A DNA stretch of 64,000 bases from Nannocystis pusilla (GCF_049060185.1 NZ_JBMEQO010000002.1), one strand, 5' to 3'. Numbered from the stretch's first letter, positions 3,023 to 56,583 are shown. The notes: generated from the sequence alone by a model not told the origin. A program made the numbers and translations.

Positions 3023-3090
3023 GCCGCCGCAGGCCGCGCGAGGGCGCGAGGCCTGGCGTGTCCTCGGGAGCGAGCGGCGCGGTGCGCGAT

Positions 3091-3187
3091 GAGACATGTT
3101 CCTTCGGGCATTGGCGAAAAGACATGCTCCATGGAGCATTGTCGATAGAACATGTCGCATGGGATATGTTTTTCAGACATGTGACCG
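3091..3187. repeat. Tandem array of ~7 units of the 14-bp palindrome family (TGTCC-N4-GGACA-like)
   Basis: The units read TGTTCCTTCGGGCA | TTGGCGAAAAGACA | TGCTCCATGGAGCA | TTGTCGATAGAACA | TGTCGCATGGGATA | TGTTTTTCAGACA. The array has lower GC than its flanks and lies just 3' of the hydrolase stop. Confidence 0.7.
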
Positions 3188-7532: not shown

Positions 7533-7926
7533 ATGTCCCAAGAGACAGCCCCCAGGAACCTCACCGCCCGGATCCTCCGGCTCGTCGGCTACCTCACCGA
7601 CCCCAAGAGCGGCCCCGGCAAGTGGTGGATGCGCTTCGAGGGCGCCTCGACCGGCGTCATGACGCGCCTGGCCACGAGTCCGCGCTACCTCAAGTTCGCG
7701 GGCCGCGGGCTGCAGAAGATGTTCCACCTCCACCGCGACGTCGTCGACCTCACCGAGGAGATCCTGCACTTCTGGCGCGTGCCGACCCTCGGCGACTTCA
7801 ACGAGGTGCGGGCGCAGCTGCGGCGGGCCGAGGACCGGCTCGAGATCACCACCACCCAGCTCGAGCTCGCGCTCCAGCTGCTGGAGAAGCTGCAGGCCGA
7901 GCTGGCCCGCTCGGTCCGGGGGCCGC
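7533..7926 (+). CDS. Small PHA synthase subunit (PhaE / class IV PhaR-type)
   Basis: A ~130-aa ORF lies directly upstream of phaC. The segment VPTLGDFNEVRAQLRRAEDRLEITTTQLE resembles the PhaE/PhaR partner-subunit motif (PTRxD...A.L...E..VD...QLE). The exact end is unresolved. Confidence 0.55.
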
Positions 7927-15383: not shown

Positions 15384-17294
15384 GTGGCCAACTACTTCGA
15401 CGACAACGAAGACCTCCAGTTCTACATGGATCGCGGCCTCGACTGGGCGCCGATCGTCGGGCTCGTCGAGCAGGACTTCCGCATCCCCGGCGGTTACGCC
15501 TCGTTGGACGAGGCGCGGGCCGCCTACCGCGACATCCTCGGCATGGTCGGTGAGTTCGCCGCCGAGCAGATTGCGCCGAAGTCGATGGCCATCGACGCGA
15601 AGGGCGTCCACCTGAAGGACGGCGAGGGCCACCTCGCGCCCGAGACCGACGCCCTGTTCGAGCAGATCAAGGGCCTCGACCTCCACGGCCTGGCCCTCCC
15701 GCGCGAGCTCGGCGGCATCGGCTGCCCCGCGGTCGTCCACTTCATGGTGTGCGAGCTGATGGCGCGGGCCGACAACGTCGTCATGACGCACTACAACTTC
15801 TACAGCGGCATCGCCCTGATGCTCCTGCTGTACTCGGTGCACGAGGGCTCCACCACCTTCGACCGCGAGCAGCGGGTCATCACCGGCACGCGCTTTCAGC
15901 CCGAGATCGCCGAGATCCTGCGCGGCGACGCGTGGGGCAGCATGGACATCACCGAGCCCGACGCCGGCAGCGACATGGCCGCGCTCAAGGCCCGCGCCGA
16001 GCAGGACGAAGAGGGCAACTGGTTCATCACCGGCCAGAAGATCTTCTTGACCTCCGGCCACGGCAAGCACCACATCGTCATCGCCCGCACCGAGCCCGAC
16101 AAGCCCGGCCTCGGCGGCCTGTCGCTGTTCCACGTCCCGGCCTACGAGGACATGCCCGACGGCTCGCGGCGCCGGATCGCCGTGATCGACCGCCTCGAGG
16201 AGAAGCTCGGCCACCACGGCTCGGCCACCGCCGCAGTCAGCTTCGATCGCGCCCCGGGCCGCCTGATCGGCAAGCGCGGCGAAGGCTTCCAGCTCATGTT
16301 GCTGCTGATGAACAACGCCCGCGTCGGCGTCGGCTTCGAGTCGATCGGCGCCTGCGAGGCCGCCTACCGCAAGGCCAAGGCCTACGCGGCCGAGCGCCGC
16401 AGCATGGGCAAGTCGATCGATCGCCACGAGATGATCGCCGACTTCCTCGACGAGATGCAGACCGAGATCCTCGGCCTGCGCGCGCTCGCCATGCAGTGCG
16501 CCTACCACGAGGAGCTGCATCAGCGCACCAAGATGCAGGGCGTGCTCGACACCGACCCCGACAGCATCGAGCGGGCGCGCGTGCTCAAGCAGGCCAAGCG
16601 CCACGCCAACCGGGCTCGCCGGCTCACCCCGCTGCTCAAGTACATCGCCAGCGAGAAGGCCGTCGAGATGTCGCGCAAGTGCATCCAGATCCTCGGCGGC
16701 GCCGGCTACGTCCGCGAGTACGGGGCCGAGAAGCTGCTGCGCGACGCCATGGTCCTGCCGATCTACGAGGGCACCAGCCAGATCCAGTCGCTCATGGCGA
16801 TGAAGGACGCGATGAGCGGCATCATGCGCAACCCGCAGCGCTTCCTCACCCGCGTGGCGCAGGCCCGCTGGCGCAGCCTCTCGGCCCTCGACGCGCTCGA
16901 GCGCCGCGTCGCTCGCCTCACCTCGCTGACGCTCGCCGCCCAGCAGCACCTGATCCAGCGCACCGCGGCCGACAAGCTGCGCGGCCTCGGCAAGCACAAG
17001 ATCACCGAGTGGTCCAAGGAGTTCTTCCAGAACTGGGACCCCAAGCGCGACTTCTCCTACGCGATGCTGCACGCCGAGCGTCTGACGCGCCTGATGGCCG
17101 ACACCGCGATCGTCGAGATCCTCCTCGAGCAGTCGCGCAAGCACCCGGAGCGCCGCAGCATCCTCGAGCGCTGGCTCGAGCGCGCCGAACCGCGCTGCAA
17201 CGCCCTCTACGAGGAGATCACGACCCGCGGCGACCGCCTGCTGGCCCAGCTGCGTGACCAGCAGCAGGAGGACGAGGCCGCCTCGGGCCGCTGA
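15384..17294 (+). CDS. Long-type acyl-CoA dehydrogenase (FadE-like, 636 aa)
   Basis: An intact frame starting at GTG. The ACAD N-terminal, middle and C-terminal domains are present (…[12 protein letters not shown]…, YEGTSQIQ…) plus a C-terminal extension. Confidence 0.9.
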
Positions 17295-17742
17295 GCCCCG
17301 CGCTCCTGCCGGCGCCGGCCGGCCTGCCGCGAGCAGGCCGCGCCGGCGCGCGCATTCGGGCCAGCGGCCGCGAGATCGGGTACCGTCCGGCCCCCATGGC
17401 CGCCCGCTCCCGATCTGCCGCCGAGCCGCGCCCGCGACCGCCCGCCGCGGACGGGCGCGCAAGGCCACCACGGACGAGCCTGGGGCACCCGCCGAGTCGC
17501 GCCGAGCCGTGGCGCGGCCCCGTCCGACCAGCGGTAGCGAGCGGACCCGAGAGGTCCCTGCGGACGAGCCGCAGCCTGCGACCACCCGGCGCATGCGGAC
17601 CCGTGAGACCTCAGGCGCCGAGCCACGCCGAGCCGCGCGGTCGAGCGTGCGTGAAGCCGCGCCCGCCAAGTCGCGCCCTGCCGCGCCGAAGAAAGAACAT
17701 ACCCCCGAGGTCGCGCCCACCGAGCCGCGACCTGCCCGCCGC

Positions 17743-18831
17743 GTGCAGGGCGGGGTGGCCACCGCCGACGTGGTCGTGTCCGCTCGGGTCGGCGACAACG
17801 CCGAGCTGTTCGCCCAGATCCTCGAGTTACATGTCCCGAAGGGCAGCACCGTCGCCGACGTCACTTACGGCCTCGGCGTGTTCTGGCGCCGCGTCCCCGA
17901 CGGGGTCTACACCCTGCTCGCCAGCGACATCGCCCTCAAGCCGGACGTCCCCGCGCGCGCCGGCGCGAAGCTGACGAGCGGCGTCGACTGCCGCGCCTTG
18001 CCGTACGCCGACGCGAGCCTCGACTGCGTCGTCCTCGACCCGCCGTACATGGAGGGCATGTACCGCCGCAGCGTCGACCACATGGCCGGCTCCGGCACCC
18101 ACGCCGCGTTCCGTCGCGCCTATTCGGCCGCCGCCGTCACCGAATCGGGCCCCAAGTGGCACGACGCAGTCGTCGACCTCTACGAAAAGGCCTGCCGCGA
18201 GGCCGCGCGCGTGCTCGTGCCGGGCGGCGTCCTGATCGTCAAGTGCCAGGACGAGGTCAGCGCCAACAAGCAGCGCCTCACCCACGTCGAGCTGATCACG
18301 GGCGGCGAGTCGCTCGGCCTCTACTGCAAGGACCTGTTCGTGCTCGTGCGCCCCAACAGCCCCGGGGTCAGCCGGCTCAAGGCCCAGGTCCACGCGCGCA
18401 AGAACCACTCCTACTTCCTCGTGTTCGAGAAGCGGCGCGTGGCGATCCGCAGCATCCGCGACTTCGCGGCCGGCGTCGACATGTCCGCAAGGACTGCCAC
18501 GGTCAGCCCCGAGAAACTGACCGAAGAGACAGGCACGGACCCGAGCAAGAAACAGCACAAAGTCGCCACCAAGCGCGCTACTGGCGATGGTCTGTCCTCC
18601 AGGACAGGCCCGTCGAAGGAGGCGCCGGCCGAGCCCGCGGCGGAGACCCTCGCGCAAGCCAGGGCCTCGAGCATGCGAGGGAACGCGAAGCCCGCCCAAG
18701 CGGAGATGTCCCAAAACCAGGTGCACCGGCACCTGCGACCCTACGCAGCGATCCGAGCGAGGCGCCCGCCATGGCTCATAGGTCCGTCGAGACAGGTGCA
18801 CACCAGGCCGAGCGACCACCGAGCACACTGA
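17743..18831 (+). CDS. Small DNA methyltransferase (N6_N4_Mtase family, DPPY motif). The ORF stays open through a motif-rich lower-GC tail, which may not be coding.
   Basis: The catalytic motif IV is in typical context: [17 protein letters not shown]. Downstream are LVPGGVLIV and the family-typical C-terminal HSYFLVFEK. The catalytic domain spans about 17743-18450. The frame then continues another ~130 codons through 6 or more palindrome units. Confidence 0.55.
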
Positions 18832-18870
18832 CGACTCGAGCTGTCACCGTCGATCTGTCCCTCGAGACAG
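18481..18870. repeat. Palindrome-unit-dense, lower-GC segment immediately 3' of the methyltransferase domain
   Basis: The units include ACATGTCCGCAAGGACTG, GAGACAGG, TCTGTCCTCCAGGACAGG (perfect), GATGTCCCAAAACC, GAGACAGG and TCTGTCCCTCGAGACAGC. Confidence 0.7.
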
Positions 18871-19034
18871 CCCCCGCAGCTCATCCCTCTCAACCCCTTC
18901 GTCTCAGCTGCCGCTCCTCGACCTGTCCCAAGCGCCAGCCCCCGAATCCTCCCCTGGCCGACCTCGCCGCCGCGCCGCCAAGGCGGGGCAGGGGGTGGCG
19001 GTTGAGGCGCCGGGAGTCGGGCGCGAGGGCCGCG

Positions 19035-19174: not shown

Positions 19175-20580
<1,406 letters not shown>

Positions 20581-20589
20581 CGGAGAGCG

Positions 20590-21643
20590 ATGGAAGCCGT
20601 CTTCAAGCAGCACTTCTGGGTCGTCAAGGCGCTGGGCCTCAGCGTCGCCGCTGCGTTCGCCGCCTCGGCGTTCACCACCTGGCTCGGCACCTCGTACATC
20701 TACGAGACCCCGACCGACGAGGCCGAGGCGACCGGCACCGACACCGACGGCGCCAAGGAAGAGGAAGAGGACGAGGAGGACAAGCCGATCATCAACCCGC
20801 GGCTGATGTCGAGCCCCTCGCGCGGACCCTCCGCGGCCGATCGCAACAAGGTCACGCAGACCATCCTCTCGCTCAACCTGTTCTGCCCGACCTGCACCAA
20901 GGTCATCACGCCCGAGACCGGCCCCGGCGGCCCGCGGTCGCGCCCGACCTCGGCCCCGGCGAGCTGCCGCAGGTGGCAGGCGGCAAGCAGCCCGGCGAGG
21001 GCCCGTGCACGCAGCCGCTGCGGCTCATCGCCACGATGGAGACCAACATGCCCGAGTACTCGTGGGCGACCATCCGCGACGAGGAGGACGGCAGCGTCGG
21101 TCCGTACTGGCCCGGCGATCGGATCCGGACCGGCGTCTACCTCGTCAGCGTCGAGCGCAGCCTCGTCCACGTCAAGAACGGCGGCGCGCTCGAGTACATC
21201 GAGCTCGGCGTCGAGCCGCCGAAGCCCTCGGCCAAGCCCGTCCAGGTGGCCGAGAAGAAGGAAGACGCGCCGCCGGCGGCGGGCGCCATCCCCGGGGCCG
21301 AGGACGCGATCAAGTGCGAGAGCGAGAACTCGTGCACCGTCGATCGCATGTTCATCGACAGCCTGTTCGCCAACCCGGCCGCGCTGACCAAGCAGGCGCG
21401 GGTGATGCCGTCGATCAAGGACGGCGAGACCAAGGGCTTCAAGTTCTACGGGATCCGCCCGGGCAGCCTGCCCAAGCTGCTCGGTATGAAGAACGGCGAC
21501 CTCCTCACCTCGGTCAACGGCATCGAGCTGAAGTCGGTCGACCAGGTCATGGGCCTTTGACCAAGATGCGCAGCGCCAGCAACCTTCAGGTCACGATTGA
21601 GCGCAAGGGCGAGTCGATCACCAAGGACATCACGATCCAATGA
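20590..21643 (+). CDS. gspC: Type II secretion system protein C (GspC). It is frameshifted.
   Basis: An N-terminal TM segment (VVKALGLSVAAAFAASAF) and a C-terminal PDZ domain (IRPGSLPKLLGMKNGDLLTSVNGIELKSVDQ...LQVTIERKGESITKDITIQ). It sits directly upstream of gspD with an ATGA overlap. Confidence 0.7.
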
Positions 21644-24051
21644 TTGCGCGTAGCAACCCCGTCCGCCCGACTGCACTGGGCCTCGCTCTCTCGGTCTGGC
21701 CGCTCTGACGCTCGGCCCGACCACCGTCTCCGCGTCCGCGCAGGATCCGACCACCGGCAGCCGTGGTGGCGAGCTGATCGGCGACGAGGGCGGCGGTACG
21801 CCCGGCGGCGGCCCGATCCCGTTCAACACGTGCAAGAAGACCCCGCGCGGGGCCAAGTTCACGATCACGTTGCCGAAGGAGACCGAGCTCGAGGACCTCG
21901 TCAACTGGATCATGTCGATCACGTGTCAGAAGTTCATCTGGGACCGCAAGGTGCGGTCCGGCAAGGTGACGATCCTGTCGCCCGAGCCGGTCACGGCCGA
22001 GGAGGCCTACGCGGCCTTCTACGCCGCGCTCGAGACGATGGGCCTGACGGTGGAGCCCTCGGGTCGCTACTTCAAGATCGTCGAGACCACCGACGCCAAG
22101 AACCGCACGCTGCCGACCTACGGCGACGACGCCGACGCGCCCAACAGCGACCGCTTCGTCACCAAGCTGATGCGCGTCAAGCACGGCAACAGCAAGGAGA
22201 TCAGCGACGTCCTCGGCCAGCTCAAGAGCAAGTCGGGCAGCGTCGACCTGGTCGGCAACCTCCTCATCATCACCGACAAGGGGTCGATGGTGCGGCGGCT
22301 CGAGACCTTCGCCGCCGAGCTCGATCAGCCGATGGGCAGCGAGAAGATCTTCTTCTACCAGCTGCAGTACGCCAACGCCGAGGAGGTCGCGCAGATCATC
22401 CGTGACATCTTCGGCGAGGCCAAGGCCAGCGGCGGCGGCGGCGGCGGCGGCGGAGCCACGGGCGGCCGCGCGGGTCGACGGGCCAGCGGCGGCGGGGGCG
22501 GCGGGGCTTCGGCCGAGTCTGCGATCAGCCGCGTGATCGTCGACGAGCGCAGCAGCACCCTCATCATCGTCACCACCGAGTCCGACTACATCGTCATCCG
22601 CAAGCTGATCGAGCGCCTCGACGTCAAGCTGCCCGGCGGCGGCGGCCGGATCCACGTTTACAAGCTCAAGAACGCCGACGCCACCGAGGTCGCGCAGGTC
22701 CTCTCGCAGCTGGCCACCGGCGCCAAGCAGGCCGCCCAGGCCTCGGCGCAGGGCGGGCAGAAGCCGCCCGCGGGCAACCCGGTCAGCGCCGACTTGTTCT
22801 CCGGCGACGTCAAGGTCACGCCCGACCCGGCGACGCGCTCGCTCGTCATCATCGCCTCGGCGGCCGACTACAAGAACTTGGAGCCGGTGATCGAGAAGCT
22901 CGACCGCGAGCGGCGCCAGCTCTACATCGAGATCTACATGCTCGAGGTGAGCATCAAGCACAACACCGACGCCGGCGCGGGCGGCCACTTCGGCTACCCG
23001 ATCAGCACCGAGCTCGGCGGCACCGCCGGCACCGCCATCGGCATGGTGGGCAGCGCGCCGACGCCCGCGCTCAACTCGCTGCTGCTCTCGCCCGACTCGC
23101 TGAAGAACTTCACCCTCGGCCTCATCGGCCCCCCGCTGCTCAACTCCGGCACCATCCTCGGCACCGGCCGCGACGTGCCGGCCTTCGGCGCCATCATCCA
23201 GGCGCTGCAGAGCAACAGCGACGTCAACGTCGTCAGCGAGCCGCACATGTACGCGGCCGACAATCAGGAGGCCACCATCGAGGTCGGCCGCAACGTCCCG
23301 ACCCCGGGCGCCCTGTCCTTCGGGGCAGGTGGCGGCGGCGGCACCGGCCTGGTCCCGCTGCAGTCGGTCGAGCGCCAGGACGTCACCCTGCGCATCAAGG
23401 TCAAGCCCTACATCAACGACGAGCGCAACGTGACGATGGACGTCGAGGTCGAGGACCGCGACATCACCGAGAAGGACCCGGTGCTCGGCGTCACCACCAC
23501 CAAGCGGCGCATCAAGCTCGACAAGATCGTCGGCCGCGACGGCCAGCCGGTCGTGCTCGGCGGCCTCATCCGTGACCGCGAGAGCGAGAACGTCAAGCAG
23601 GTCCCCGGCCTCGGCTCGATCCCGCTCCTCGGCTGGCTCTTCAAGAACCGGGTCAAGGAGAAGGAGAAGATCAACCTCCTCCTCGTCATGGTCCCGCACA
23701 TCATCGACAGCCCCGACGACGTGCGCCGGATCCACGAGCGGCGCGACAAGGAGCGGCTCGAGTTCATCGAGCGCGAGACCAACTTCCGCAAGCGCGAGCT
23801 CAAGAGCAACATCAACTACCGCAAGAAGTCCGGCATCTTGGCCGCGATCGACAAGGAGGCCCGGCGCATGGAGCAGGAGGAGCTGCTGCTGCGTCGCGCC
23901 GAGGAGGAGATGCGGCGCGAGATCATCACCGGCGAGCTCGGCCTCAGCCCGCGCTCCGCGGTCGACGACAACGTCGGCGGCGACGGCGGGCGGCGGCGCG
24001 CCGCCCGCGGCCACGGTGAACCCGGCGCCGGTGATCCGGCGCGAGCCCTGA
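21640..24051 (+). CDS. gspD: Type II secretion system secretin GspD. It has a frame switch near the N-terminus and another at the C-terminus.
   Basis: N0/N1-type domains are present (FTITLPKETELEDLVNWIMSITCQKFIW... and RVKHGNSKEIS...). The secretin core reads VNVVSEPHMYAADNQEATIEVGRNVP...PGLGSIPLLGWLFKN. Confidence 0.85.
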
Positions 24052-41723: not shown

Positions 41724-41920
41724 GCGCGAGCTCGGGTCGAACTGCTGAGCGCCGGAAGTTGCCATCGAGCGAGACGCCCTCGATCCACGTGAACGCCTGA
41801 GCGGCGTCGGTAGGCGGCTCGTCGTCAAAGCCTTCGTCCTTGTGGGCGGCCGTCTTCGAGGACGAGGGGCGCCGGTCTCGCTCGATGGGAGAGGCGTCGC
41901 CGCGGCGTCGGGCATGGTCG

Positions 41921-42070
41921 AAGGGACATGTCCTGGCGGTCATGCCTGACGCGTCCTGCGAGCGCGGCTGGAGACCCGGCCGAGGAGCTCACGGACATGA
42001 CCGAACAGACATGTCCAAATCGCCATGCTGCTTCGGGCATGTCTTCGAGGACATGCCCGAAGCGACAGGC
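41921..42070. repeat. Two adjacent tandem arrays of palindrome units between convergent genes
   Basis: The first run is GGGACA|TGTCCTGGCGGTCA|TGCCTGACGCGTCC. The second is GGACA|TGACCGAACAGACA|TGTCCAAATCGCCA|TGCTGCTTCGGGCA|TGTCTTCGAGGACA|TGCCCGAAGCGACA. Confidence 0.75.
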
Positions 42071-45000: not shown

Positions 45001-47402
45001 CGGCTTGCGCGTCGACGACTCGACCCGATCCTCGTCGGACACGGCCTCGGGGGCGCCCGGCGCGGCCTCCGGAGAGCTGGCCGAAGGGACAGGCGGGCTC
45101 GGCGCGGGCTCGGCGGGGCTGACCGGAGGGACAGGTGTGCCCGGCGCGGGCTCGACGGGGCTGGCCGAAGGGACAGGCGGGCTCGGCGCGGGCTCGGCGA
45201 GGCTGACCGGAGGGACAGGTGTGCCCGGCGCGGTCGTGGAGCGAGCGACGCCGTTGCTGGGGCCGTGCGCGGACGCGGGCTTGTCGGCGGCGGGGGCGGG
45301 GGCGGGGGCGGGCGCCACGCCGACGGGGATGCCGACGAGGGTGCGCCTGTCCCAATTGCCAGACGAGGTGTCCGAATAGATGGGCACCCCGAGGGCCGGA
45401 GTCACCGGTCGCGGGGTGGTCGCCGGCGGCAGGATGATGAGCGGCGTGTCAGGGGCGATGGCCATCGCCGCCAGCGAGGCGTTCTGGTCCTCGAAGCCGC
45501 CCGGGTCGATGAGCGGGGCGTCCGGGGCGACGGGGACGGGCGAGGGCCGCGTCGACGGCCGTTTGGCGGGGGCAGCGGAATCGGGCTCGGGCGCCCGGGA
45601 GTCGTAGGCAGCCGTCTGGCGGCTCGCCGCGGCGGCAGGCGTGGGGGCGGTTTCGGTCCGGCGTCCCGTGGCGGCGTGGCCCGGGGTATCGAGCTGAGGT
45701 GACCTGGTCTCGGAGACAGGTGTTGCCTCCGGCGCAGGCGCGCGGCCGGAGGATGGGGCCGAGGCGTTCGCGGCGGAGCTGTCCGCGGGGACAGGTGCGG
45801 ACGGGGCAGTGACGCTCGGTGCTGCGGCGCGGCTGTCCTCAGGGACAGATGCGGCAGCAGGGGCCGACGCCGGCGCCGGCGTCGCGGTGCGGGTCGCGGC
45901 GGCCCGGTCCGCGGCGAGTTCGTCGGAGGCGCGAGGCGCGTTGGCGCGAGCGTCCGAGTCGGTCGCCGGCGAGCCGGCGAGAGCGGGGACGAACCCGCGG
46001 CGAGCGCGGGACCGTTCGCCGGGCGGGCCCGGTCCGCGTCGATGGCCGCGTCGCGGCTGTCCTTGAGTGCAGGTGCGAGCGACTCGCTCGGCCTGTCCCC
46101 GGGGACATGCGCCGTCGCGGCGGCGTCGTCGGGCGTGCCCGACCGCGGCGAGCCGGCCTCCGACGGCGAGGCGCCGGACGGCGAACCCGTCGCGCGCGCC
46201 GCGGTGTTCGGCCCGGACATCGCCGCCGGGCGCGGGCCGGCCATCTGCCTGTCCGATGGGACAGGTACGTCGGCCTGCAGCGCGTCGGCCAGCGACGGTC
46301 GCGCGCCCGCGGTCGCCTCGTCCATCGTGACAGGGGCGGTCTGCGTGTCTTCTGCGGCGTCGGCCTTCGGGGTGGCGGCAGGCCTGGCCTCGTCCACCTT
46401 CGCGTCGATGGCGGACCTGTCCGCCGGGACAGGCGCGTCCGCATGACCGGCGGCGACCTGGCCGCTCGCGGATTTGTCGGCGCGCGACGAACCGAAGGCA
46501 GGACCTCCGGCCTCGACCTCGACCCCGTGACTGGCGGCGGCCGTGTCGGGGCGACGGGCCGGGGCGCCTGCCCCTGGCTCGCGTCGGGCTGGGCCGCCGG
46601 GCCCTCGCCAGCGCTCGGCGCGTCAGCGTTGCGAGCGTCGACCGGCGTGTTCGCGCCGGACGGCTCCGATCCGGCGTCGGCCTGCGACCTGTCCGCAGGG
46701 ACAGCCGCATCGGCGCCGCGGGCATCGGCCGGCTGCCTGTCCGCGGGGACAGGCGCCCCCTCGCGCGCCTCGGCTGTCGGCCTGTCCGGGACAGCTGCCT
46801 CGGCGCGGGCTTCCGTCGGCTGCCTGTCTGATGAGACAGGTGCGTCGGCCGACCGCCTGTCCGCAGGGACAGCCGCCTCGCTCGGCCGCGGCTCGGCGGC
46901 GCCCGGCACCAGGCTGATCGTGATCGAGGCGGTGCGCAGCGCCTCGAGGTAGTCGAGCAGGATCAGCGCGTAGCGCGGGGCGAGGATCGAGCCGGTGCGC
47001 TCGGCGGCGATCTTGGCCAGGCAGCACTCGGGCGCGACGACCGGGTAGAAGCCGCGGACCATGCGGTAGAGCTGGCCGAGCTTGGCGTCGGGCAGGTCGG
47101 GGTGGACGGCGACGATCAGCCGGCCGTCCTCCTGCGCGAGCGGCATGGCCCAGCCGATGTCGACCAGGTCTCTCGGGACATGTTCCCAGGGACGGGTCGG
47201 CCCGCGCTCGAGCAGCCGCACCGGCGCGCCGGGAGGCCGCAGGCGCTCTGCAGCAGGGCGTCGAGCTGCAGCGGGGTCATCAGCCCGAGCTCGAGGATCG
47301 CGGTGTCGAGGCTGCCGCCGGCCAGCTGCTGCCGCCGGGTCGCGGCCTCGAGATCGGCGCGCGACAGCGGGCCGTTGGCTTCGAGGTGGCGCAGGAGGAG
47401 GC
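42073..47402 (-). CDS. Giant multidomain protein (~1770 aa). Its domains, in order, are: two N-terminal GspE-N/MshEN-like domains, long Pro/Ala/Asp-rich tandem repeats, a GAF-like domain, acidic/Pro-rich linkers, and C-terminal HEAT (PBS-lyase-type) repeats. It has at least one frame switch near 46800-47200.
   Basis: The N-terminus is VSLLLRHLEANGPLSRADLEAATRRQQLAGGSLDTAILELGLMTPLQLDALLQ. It is followed by MRLLERGPTRPWEHVPRDLVDIGWAMPLAQEDGRLIVAVHPDLPDAKLGQLYRMV. The middle has a GAF-like block MVMTLAQRLDAARATLATARERDRITEALV... The C-terminus has HEAT repeats ...DPDVRLIATRVLESY...VRDKHVREAALEAL...DEAVRRWAADELARI. The GTG start overlaps the stop of the upstream RDD gene. Confidence 0.55.
46089..46875. 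repeat. Coding tandem repeat of 33-48 bp units, each beginning with a TGTCC-N4-GGACA palindrome
   Basis: The units are CCTGTCCGCAGGGACAGCCGC..., CCTGTCCGCGGGGACAGGCGCC..., CCTGTCCGGGACAGCTGCC..., CCTGTCTGATGAGACAGGTGCG... and CCTGTCCGCAGGGACAGCCGCC. They encode the protein repeat AVPADR(Q/S)(P/A)(T/A)(E/D)A... Confidence 0.75.
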
Positions 47403-51487: not shown

Positions 51488-52898
51488 GTGAGCGTCGATC
51501 CCGACCGGTTGCTCGAGTTGTTCCGCCGTCACCTCCCGCTGCGCGAAGGGTCCGTCGAGCTCGCGTTCGCGTCCGGCTACGACGCGCCCGTGTGGCGCAG
51601 CGAGGCGGGCTATCCCCTCATGGCCCTGCGGCTGACGACCTTCGATCCGGTCGACGGCGTCATCCCGCTCGACATCCGCGAGCAGGAGGTCTTCATCGGC
51701 GACGATCGCAAGCACGCCCCCGAGCGCTGGCTGGCGTATGTCGAGGGCCACCTGCAGGCGATGCCGGCGATCCTCGCGCATTTCGGCGAACCCGACGCGA
51801 TGATGCCCTGCGACCTGTTCGTCTACGGGGCAGTGCTCGCCGACGAAGCGCTGCAGCGACCCGACCAGTTCGCCGCGGCGCTCCGCGATCCGGTTCGCCT
51901 CGCGGCCATGGACGAGGCCGCGCGCGAGGCCGAGTGGCGCGATCGCCTGGAGCCGCTCGGCCTCGCCGATCACGCCGCCGAGGTGCAAGCCATGGCTCGC
52001 CCCTCGATCCGCCTGCACCTCTCTCGCAGCGACGAGCTCGACGAGGACGAGGACGAAGACGAAGATGCCGAGGTCGACGAGGACGAGGACGAAGACGAAG
52101 GTGACGGCGACGACGCGGAGGCCACTCATGAGCCCGGCCAGACGCGCCTGGGCGGCGCTCCTGACTTGCCGCCCGACTTGCCGTGGCCGAGGTCGACGGC
52201 GTCGAGCTGACCTTCGTCGCCCAGTTCGATCTCGCCGGGCTGGCGGATCGCGCCGCCGCGCGCGAGCTGCCCACACACGGCCTCCTGAGCTTCTTTACGC
52301 CCCGATCCCGCCCGACGGCGTGCGCGGGCATCCGGTGCGGGTGCTCCACTTCACCGACCTCGACGCGCTCGCGCGCCGCCCGGTGCCTCCGGGGTCGAGC
52401 CGCTGAGCGCCTACGACATCGACCTCGCCGACGAGCGGCTGTACCCGTGCGTCGACAGCTACTTCTTCTACGAGTCATTGCTGCCCGAGGCGCGCATCCT
52501 CGAGGTCCATCGTCAGCGTCAGCAGGGCGAGGGGGCGAGCTGATCCCGTTCAACCCGCTCGAGCGCTTCATCGCCGAGTCCGGCGAGCTCGACGACTACG
52601 AGCGGCCGTACCACCGCCTGTTGGGTCACCCGGCCTCGATCCAGGGCGATCCGTACCTCGACGTCGAGATCGACACCCGCCCCCAGGGCTGGGACGGCTG
52701 GGACGACGGCAGCCCCGAGGCGCTGGCCATCCGCCGACGAGCGCTGCGCTGGCGGCTGCTGCTGCAGATCGACGCCCAGGAGGACGGCGAGCTGCTGCTC
52801 AACCAGGACGGCGGCTTCTTCTACTTCTGGATCCCCGCCGACGCCCTGGCCGTCCACGACTGGTCGCAGGCGCGCGGGGCGCTGCAGTGCCATTGAAG
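51488..52898 (+). CDS. DUF1963 (YwqG-like) domain protein with an acidic Asp/Glu-rich linker. It is frameshifted.
   Basis: The C-terminal domain reads ...TRLGGAPDLPPDLPWP...LTFVAQFDLAGL...LPTHGLLSFF... and ...WRLLLQIDAQEDGELLLNQDGGFFYFWIPADAL. The internal linker is DELDEDEDEDEDAEVDEDEDEDEGDGDD. Confidence 0.65.
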
Positions 52899-52950
52899 AA
52901 CATGTCCTCGAGAGCATGCCCTCGAGGACATGTTCTTGAGAGCATGCTCG
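52897..52950. repeat. Gap-free array of 4 palindrome units with exact 14-bp periodicity between convergent genes
   Basis: The array reads GAACA|TGTCCTCGAGAGCA|TGCCCTCGAGGACA|TGTTCTTGAGAGCA|TGCTCG. It begins one nt after the stop of the DUF1963 gene. Confidence 0.85.
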
Positions 52951-52951
52951 A

Positions 52952-56465: not shown

Positions 56466-56548
56466 TCATGGCATGTCCTTCACGGCATGTTGTGAAGAAC
56501 ATGGTGACATGGACATGTCTCTACGGGCATGTCCATGCGGGCATGCCG
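56466..56548. repeat. Tandem array of ~6 palindrome units in an intergenic region
   Basis: The array reads TGGCA|TGTCCTTCACGGCA|TGTTGTGAAGAACA|TGGTGACATGGACA|TGTCTCTACGGGCA|TGTCCATGCGGGCA|TGCC. Confidence 0.75.
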
Positions 56549-56583
56549 ATCGATGTGGCTTGTTCGGCGGGGGCGCGCGGGCG

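Follow-up and report, generated by a model that had tools for sequence, protein, structure and literature searches.

A bipartite palindrome abundant in Nannocystis and its copy next to a rare leucine codon in a DNA methyltransferase gene

The palindrome family and the closest described systems

The described system most similar to the repeat reported here is HIP1 (GCGATCGC), a short palindrome of cyanobacteria. It is 15- to 300-fold over-represented and conserved both within and between ORFs, and its function is unknown (PMC5861425). A speculative link to methyltransferases and repair has been proposed (PMC4390886), and either selection or biased repair has been suggested as the cause of its abundance (PMC5861425, PMC4390886). 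Other traits of the HIP1 class are cognate orphan methyltransferases and a periodic distribution along the chromosome.

We have analyzed a stretch of 64,000 nucleotides from Nannocystis pusilla, which is called the window throughout. A 14-bp palindrome, TGTCC-N4-GGACA, is found in it both inside ORFs and between ORFs. If one transition is allowed in each arm (TGYCC-N4-GGRCA), 23 exact copies are present against 0.40 expected, an excess of about 57-fold. The unit TGTCC-N4-GGACA itself, with 18 copies, is the commonest 5-N4-5 palindrome of the window, despite its AT-containing arms. The same arms are never found with a spacer of 3, 5 or 6, and other arms of matched composition give at most one copy. 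Abutting units join as ACA|TGT, which generates CATG and arrays with a 14-bp period; the spacing between CATG sequences has peaks at 14, 28 and 42 bp. Outside the arms, a symmetrised logo of the flanks shows a preference for G at positions -5 and -4 (0.55 and 0.49, with T at 0.10–0.12), while position -3 is either A (0.45) or G (0.42). With up to three mismatches allowed, the 17-mer ACATGTCCCGAAGGGCA of 17829-17845 is matched 12 times in the window, where 0.08 matches are expected. Its sequence is that of the 17829 site itself, however, and hence is not the family consensus.

The abundance of this palindrome is a feature of one lineage. Our sample comprises the 64 kb of the window and orthologous loci. 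The density of the palindrome is 0.36–0.42 copies per kb in the window and in the loci of cultured Nannocystis. Related Nannocystaceae MAGs contain 0.02–0.06 copies per kb. In all other phyla the density is 0.003 per kb, rising to 0.011 per kb when only their high-GC members are counted.

The Nannocystis unit thus resembles HIP1 in several respects: Both are short palindromes whose counts exceed expectation by one to two orders of magnitude, both occur within and between ORFs, and both are accommodated by codon choice and restricted to a lineage. In the material covered, 64 kb of window and 54 kb of related loci, the abundance of the Nannocystis unit lies above the at least 15-fold over-representation of the HIP1 class. 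HIP1 is a contiguous 8-mer. In Nannocystis, by contrast, two 5-bp arms flank a spacer of always 4 bp (5+4+5), and these bipartite units abut in arrays of 14-bp period which form long hairpins. These intergenic arrays are reminiscent of REP/BIME elements, since they are clusters of imperfect palindromes, some of them between convergent genes and one of them folding strongly (Table 1). REP elements, however, are extragenic by definition, whereas in the Nannocystis family in-frame coding copies are significantly over-represented, and one of them, at 17832, lies in a conserved enzyme domain. The Nannocystis unit also lacks a GTAG-type head and is shorter (14 bp).

Arrays with three to six abutting units are located at 52893-52951, 56472-56556, 41913-42066 and 3085-3170. 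The array at 52893-52951 sits between convergent genes. These arrays could act as bidirectional terminators or cruciforms. No Rfam family matches the palindrome, and our search of the literature on palindromes in Nannocystis or myxobacteria found no description of such a repeat.

Two other ways of describing the family were discarded. A 14-column weight matrix derived from the arrays contains too little information: It ranked the methyltransferase site only 43rd in the window, so the palindrome definition was used instead. The ATG of CATG is not a start codon as a general rule, because this fits only 2–4 copies (for example, 7533 and 29453). At 7533, 29453 and 55107(-) it is the likely start of the downstream gene, and copies of this type read ATG TCC CAA GAG ACA GCC (MSQETA) or ATG TCC TCC AGG ACA GCC (MSSRTA).

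The chances are about even that cultured Nannocystis possess a HIP1-like system of their own: a bipartite palindrome with about one copy per 3 kb, able to override a GC3 bias of 97%, which would imply a genome-wide sequence-specific agent. On this reading, the palindrome would lie behind roughly one in three of the ACA and CAT codons in the genes of the window, and it touches the only TTA. The agent would be an undescribed one: a dimeric DNA-binding protein present in large amounts, or else an activity of biased repair or conversion. If the pressure on the palindrome holds for the whole genome, Nannocystis would be a second, independent and culturable system, beside HIP1, in which to study how one short palindrome comes to saturate a bacterial genome and its genes. 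Its extreme codon bias exposes the rare codons driven by the motif, so that selection and mutational drive might be separated by comparative genomics. There is also a warning for annotation: Rare codons of these genomes, such as TTA, CTA, ACA and CAT, are often signs of a palindrome copy, and need not mean horizontal transfer, sequencing errors or translational control.

The methyltransferase gene and its palindrome copy

The main features of the region are listed in Table 1. A preliminary description of this DNA had placed the peptide ELHVPKGS, with a TTA leucine codon, in a methyltransferase domain. This is correct: The bases GAG TTA CAT GTC CCG AAG GGC AGC are found at 17824-17847, in frame with the plus-strand ORF 17254..18831. 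GC3 in this frame is locally 0.94–0.98, which indicates that the plus frame is coding and that the minus-strand ORFs overlapping it are shadows. The ORF matches PF01555 (N6_N4_Mtase) with 28.2 bits, the gathering cut-off being 26.7, and it contains the catalytic motif DPPY as part of LDPPYMEG, which is invariant in our methyltransferase alignment. A protein 100% identical to it is annotated as DNA methyltransferase of N. pusilla. No solved relative was found in a PDB search and no equivalog in NCBIfam, and neither identified the target specificity.

Table 1. Location of the palindrome copies, rare codons and other features considered in this work. Positions are counted from the first nucleotide of the window.
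Feature	Position	Strand	Remarks
DNA methyltransferase gene	17743..19010	+	GTG start at 17743 by homology; conserved core to about 18480
TTA leucine codon, the only in-frame TTA of the window	17827..17829	+	only its third base (17829) lies in the extended motif flank
Rare histidine codon CAT	17830..17832	+	its T opens the palindrome arm TGTCC
Coding-embedded palindrome TGTCC CGAA GGGCA	17832..17845	+	exact TGYCC-N4-GGRCA; frame b: caT GTC CCG AAG GGC Agc
Palindrome copy with one mismatch, methyltransferase tail	18482..18495	+	frame c: GAC ATG TCC GCA AGG ACT (DMSART)
Exact palindrome copy, methyltransferase tail	18593..18606	+	frame c: CTG TCC TCC AGG ACA (LSSRT)
Palindrome copy with one mismatch, methyltransferase tail	18856..18869	+	CTG TCC CTC GAG ACA (LSLET), frame as in orthologs
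Exact palindrome copy, NtrC-type response-regulator gene	19269..19282	+	AAC ATG TCC GTT CGG ACA (from 19267), with rare GTT and ACA
Intergenic array of abutting 14-bp units	52893..52951	.	folds to a 17-bp stem, -31.7 kcal/mol, z -6.9

The part of the protein encoded beyond about 18480 is a low-complexity tail, specific to Nannocystis. The ORF ends at 18831 in the window as a result of two probable single-base assembly frameshifts (at about 18705 and 18880); the true end of the gene lies at about 19002-19025. In all the Nannocystis genomes compared, the genes follow each other in the same order: 2OG oxygenase, acyl-CoA dehydrogenase (ACAD), methyltransferase, NtrC-type regulator, a hypothetical gene and secretin.

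The peptide which carries the palindrome belongs to the conserved part of the protein. LHVPxG[S/A] lies directly upstream of the SAM-binding motif DVTYGLG (DVT[YF]G.G), at a constant position in homologs. In an alignment of 18 sequences from different phyla, the conservation of its L, H and V is 90% or more, and the peptide recurs in loci of many phyla. The core of the methyltransferase family has about 250 amino acids. Relatives are encoded in at least 526 genomic stretches. In loci L001-L080, members with 57–72% identity come from Planctomycetota, Acidobacteriota, Chloroflexota, Cyanobacteria, CPR bacteria and even from a Micrarchaeota MAG. Such an unusually wide distribution, at high sequence identity, suggests that the family may have spread horizontally.

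TTA is indeed almost absent from coding sequence, as had been claimed. The coding set, delimited by GC3 (about 0.97), consists of 60 segments with 16,011 codons; a few of the palindrome copies that this procedure calls coding (for example, 55105 and 43095) may straddle gene boundaries. It contains 1,666 leucine codons, with a single TTA and a single CTA, two codons which are about equally rare; the others are CTG (821), CTC (762), TTG (72) and CTT (9). We have scanned all 50 TTA trinucleotides of the window on both strands. Besides 17827, the only in-frame candidate is 47999(-), which was rejected as a second coding TTA, because it is upstream of a likely ATG start and probably belongs to a 5' leader. 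The TTA codon is not a sequencing error either, since the same 24 bases are found in two independent genomes, Nannocystis sp. RBIL2 and N. pusilla Na p29. The neighbouring CAT is also rare: Only 15 are found in the 16,011 codons, and 4 of these 15 are inside palindrome copies. The A before this CAT and the GT after it form ACATGT.

The relation between TTA and the palindrome is only partial. It had been stated that the site contains the motif. This holds for the 17-mer at 17829-17845, but the real unit is 17832-17845, and just the third base of TTA falls within the 17-mer. The codon itself occupies positions -5, -4 and -3 of the flank. Its two T are outside the motif, at positions which prefer G, so the motif accounts for a leucine codon of the type NNA (CTA or TTA), not for the T in first position. 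The left flank, TTACA, matches A-C-A of the consensus but not its G-G. In the right flank, GCACC, only the first base fits, and GC does not mirror the CA on the left. The right arm, GGGCA, is one transition away from the majority arm GGACA. GGACA is impossible here because the glycine codon fixes GG, and GGGCA is the closest attainable form. When the peptide is written in preferred codons, CAC GTC CCG AAG GGC AGC, the result is cGTCC CGAA GGGCA, one base short of the palindrome.

This copy is solitary, like most coding copies: No CATG or arm is found 14 bp upstream or downstream of it. Its RNA hairpin is a modest one (-5.1 kcal/mol, z -1.06) and there is no Rfam match, which makes a role as RNA structure unlikely. 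By our reading of the copies, G-U pairs are no more frequent than C-A pairs among the arm variants on the sense strand (two of each). In summary, the TTA codon is by itself of little significance, and the site is a modest anecdote in a larger palindrome pattern.

Codon choice in the coding copies

The effect of the palindrome on coding sequences was evaluated by a shuffling test, in which synonymous codons are exchanged between positions with the same amino acid, so that both the proteins and the overall codon usage stay unchanged. Exact palindromes in the coding segments are far more abundant than in the shuffled sequences, 6 against 0.129 expected (P<0.0005). Three of them are read in frame b, as the 17832 site is (xxT GTC C..); 0.12 are expected in this frame, a comparison which is an aggregate test and no proof for a particular site. 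The other three are in frame c (xTG TCC ... ACA), where only 0.006 are expected. A similar excess is found with the 16-mer CATGYCCNNNNGGRCA: three exact matches against 0.07, and 16 against 3.18 when up to one mismatch is allowed.

The codon preceding the frame-b copies is also unusual. It ends in A in seven of the eight cases (gga, gaa, gta, cca and tta are found), although such codons are only 1.3% of the background. Without the 17832 site the proportion is 6/7 (P about 3e-11), and in a conservative subset of these copies it is 3/4 (P about 9e-6). The A in the third position of the leucine codon therefore fits the usual flank ACA|TGTCC. From the symmetrised logo, where A and G are almost equally frequent at -3, we had concluded that the A of TTA is irrelevant; this has been withdrawn in view of the seven A-ending codons.

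Of the 13 codons ACA, a rare one for threonine, five are inside copies, which cover only 0.6% of all codons; the association of ACA and CAT with the palindrome is partly inherent in the definition of the motif, the shuffling being the independent test. A signature of the same kind in the NtrC gene had been mentioned in the preliminary description, and the copy in question is real (Table 1): GTT CGG ACA is present in 6/6 orthologs. The palindrome is exact in only two of these six, and the conservation of background rare codons is also high; rare CTA, CAT and ACA codons are shared by 6/6 orthologs as well. As for the DNA-level signature which had been attributed to the TTA codon, it is supported by CAT, by the A in third position and by the excess in the shuffling test (6 against 0.13). 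It does not extend to the TT, which is outside the motif.

A very large ORF on the minus strand, continuing from 42079 and with 1,599 codons or more, has a low-complexity N-terminal region at 45055-46872. At least 12 palindrome copies in a single frame are found there, as CTG TCC nnn CGG ACA GG, which codes for LSxRTG. A 42-bp (3 x 14) tandem repeat is located at 45055-45233. In this ORF, repetitive peptide segments seem to be built from the palindrome.

Orthologs and possible explanations

The Leu-His codons of the site have been compared in ten Nannocystis genomes. TTA CAT is found in the window, RBIL2 and Na p29; CTA CAT in JAIRAU and N. exedens; CTG CAT in SCPEA4 and ncelm1; CTA CAC in N. 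pusilla CP185339, which belongs to the clade of the window (1.6% ACAD divergence); and CTG CAC in N. punicea and N. bainbridge. Leucine is thus coded by TTA in three genomes, CTA in three and CTG in four. CAT, and with it the palindrome, is present in 7/10, the exceptions being N. punicea, N. bainbridge and CP185339. Sister genomes have the same palindrome with either CTG or CTA. Every single-step intermediate exists, and TTA derives from CTA by a C>T change specific to one clade. Among the high-GC relatives listed that do not belong to cultured Nannocystis, 13 of 15 have CAC. The methyltransferase copy is confined to the group of genomes which are rich in palindromes.

These data do not amount to constraint, a word used in the preliminary description which is too strong: The site varies among the ten genomes, even inside the N. 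pusilla clade, as CP185339 shows. In a parsimony analysis, based on a neighbour-joining tree with weak inner nodes, the Leu-His pair requires five changes and ranks among the top 5 of the 712 windows of adjacent codons, while other spots in the methyltransferase have 5–6. Synonymous divergence among Nannocystis genomes is only 3–10%, and many AT-ending codons are common to most species. Taken alone, the retention of CAT is therefore a weak argument, and we have rejected it as proof of constraint. Since the copy is polymorphic among ten genomes, any selection on it would be weak at most.

A similar situation is found in ACAD. At codon 256 (about 16150 in the window), L081-L085 contain an exact copy, GAC ATG CCC GAT GGG ACA, with rare GAT and ACA codons. 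It is present in 5/9 genomes. The clade of the window lacks it (GGC TCG or ACG), and so does N. bainbridge (GGG ACC). Coding copies are thus gained and lost through synonymous or conservative changes.

Building on the observed anatomy, enrichment, codon-level excess, lineage specificity and ortholog states, we propose, with a probability of about 0.6, that the 17832 site is a coding copy of a hyper-abundant, Nannocystis-specific palindrome, superimposed on a peptide constrained at the protein level, and that CAT and the NNA leucine codon result from a pressure at the DNA level. Most of the palindrome would already have been present in the preferred codons of the ancient peptide LHVPxG[S/A]. 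One synonymous C>T change, from CAC to CAT, would have completed the TGTCC arm, and a G>A change in the third base of leucine (CTG>CTA) would have added the usual flank ACA|TGTCC. Both changes may have been favoured by a genome-wide pressure which raises the frequency of the palindrome in genes and in intergenic regions. By analogy with HIP1, this pressure might stem from selection for a sequence which an abundant dimeric DNA-binding protein recognises, or else from a sequence-biased repair or conversion process. The change from CTA to TTA, outside the motif, would most simply be a near-neutral, clade-specific C>T between two equally poor leucine codons.

The polymorphism of the site also agrees with a simpler possibility, that HVPKGS just happens to be coded by a near-palindrome, and that TTA and CAT reflect slightly deleterious drift towards AT in a weakly expressed gene. 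Other spots of the methyltransferase are equally variable, rare AT-ending codons shared between species are common in neighbouring genes (such as the CTA, CAT and ACA codons of the six NtrC orthologs), the weak position-weight matrix gives the site a low rank, and its hairpin is unremarkable. Against mere coincidence stand the number of frame-b copies, well above what codon usage predicts, and the recurrence of A-ending codons before them. Moreover, the copy is found only in palindrome-rich genomes, and three changes towards AT fall within six bases where GC3 is 0.97. Pure coincidence at this one site is disfavoured by the shuffling test, the recurrent A-ending codon and the match with the lineage, and we consider it rather unlikely. 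It is more doubtful still that this copy has a function of its own, as an operator or RNA hairpin for the methyltransferase or for the downstream NtrC-type gene. The fixed spacer of 4 is typical of dimeric DNA-binding sites, and the copy lies about 90 nt into its gene, much as the NtrC copy lies about 92 nt into the NtrC gene. However, three of the ten genomes have lost it with synteny unchanged, and neither the stability of the hairpin nor the pairing of the arm variants, nor Rfam, points to an RNA element.

In Streptomyces, TTA codons confer dependence on bldA. The Nannocystis site is bldA-like in that a TTA appears in a very GC-rich genome which is nearly devoid of this codon, here next to a second rare codon. 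TTA, alone or with CAT, might accordingly be a rare-codon pause or a bldA-like switch which ties the expression of the methyltransferase to a scarce tRNA-Leu(UAA). We regard this as very improbable: Unlike the case of bldA, the codon is not kept among orthologs, being restricted to three close genomes; CTA or the preferred CTG is found in the others, one of which belongs to that clade. The window contains no tRNA genes, and a single TTA does not form a pattern across regulatory genes. Even less can be said for the insertion or gene conversion of a repeat unit which brought its own codons into the methyltransferase gene. The 13-base stretch ACATGTCCCGAAG is indeed common to this site and to the copy at 261-273, and in-frame copies are numerous in the methyltransferase tail and in the large neighbouring ORF. 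But LHVPxG is conserved across many phyla, without change of length, in homologs which lack the palindrome, and the single-base intermediates among Nannocystis genomes speak for point substitutions. Insertion is effectively refuted.

Several irregularities have been noticed in the assemblies of this region. Compared with other Nannocystis, the window lacks single bases, with one 2-bp gap, at 19968-19972, about 20115, about 20535, in 20590-21700, at 18705 and about 18880, some of them in short runs of C or T. In the NtrC-type gene, two compensating shifts garble about 50 AAA+ residues and a third one lengthens the ORF. The gene after NtrC and the methyltransferase tail are also frameshifted, and the NtrC gene of Na p29 has one such gap. 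The missing bases look like indels of long-read assembly rather than biology. In N. pusilla CP185339 (L086, 2733-3062), one base pair is inserted in the methyltransferase gene. Two G>A changes replace D by N, one of them within the SAM-binding DVTYG, further GC>AT changes are present, and the annotated protein begins only at about residue 90. This gene may be a pseudogene, or there may be errors in the assembly.

Finally, the length of the methyltransferase tail varies among Nannocystis, whose proteins have 360–552 amino acids. In-frame palindrome copies stud this tail. They encode [DN][LM]SxxT[AG], with threonine nearly always coded by the rare ACA, and the N. punicea locus (L081) contains seven palindrome copies.
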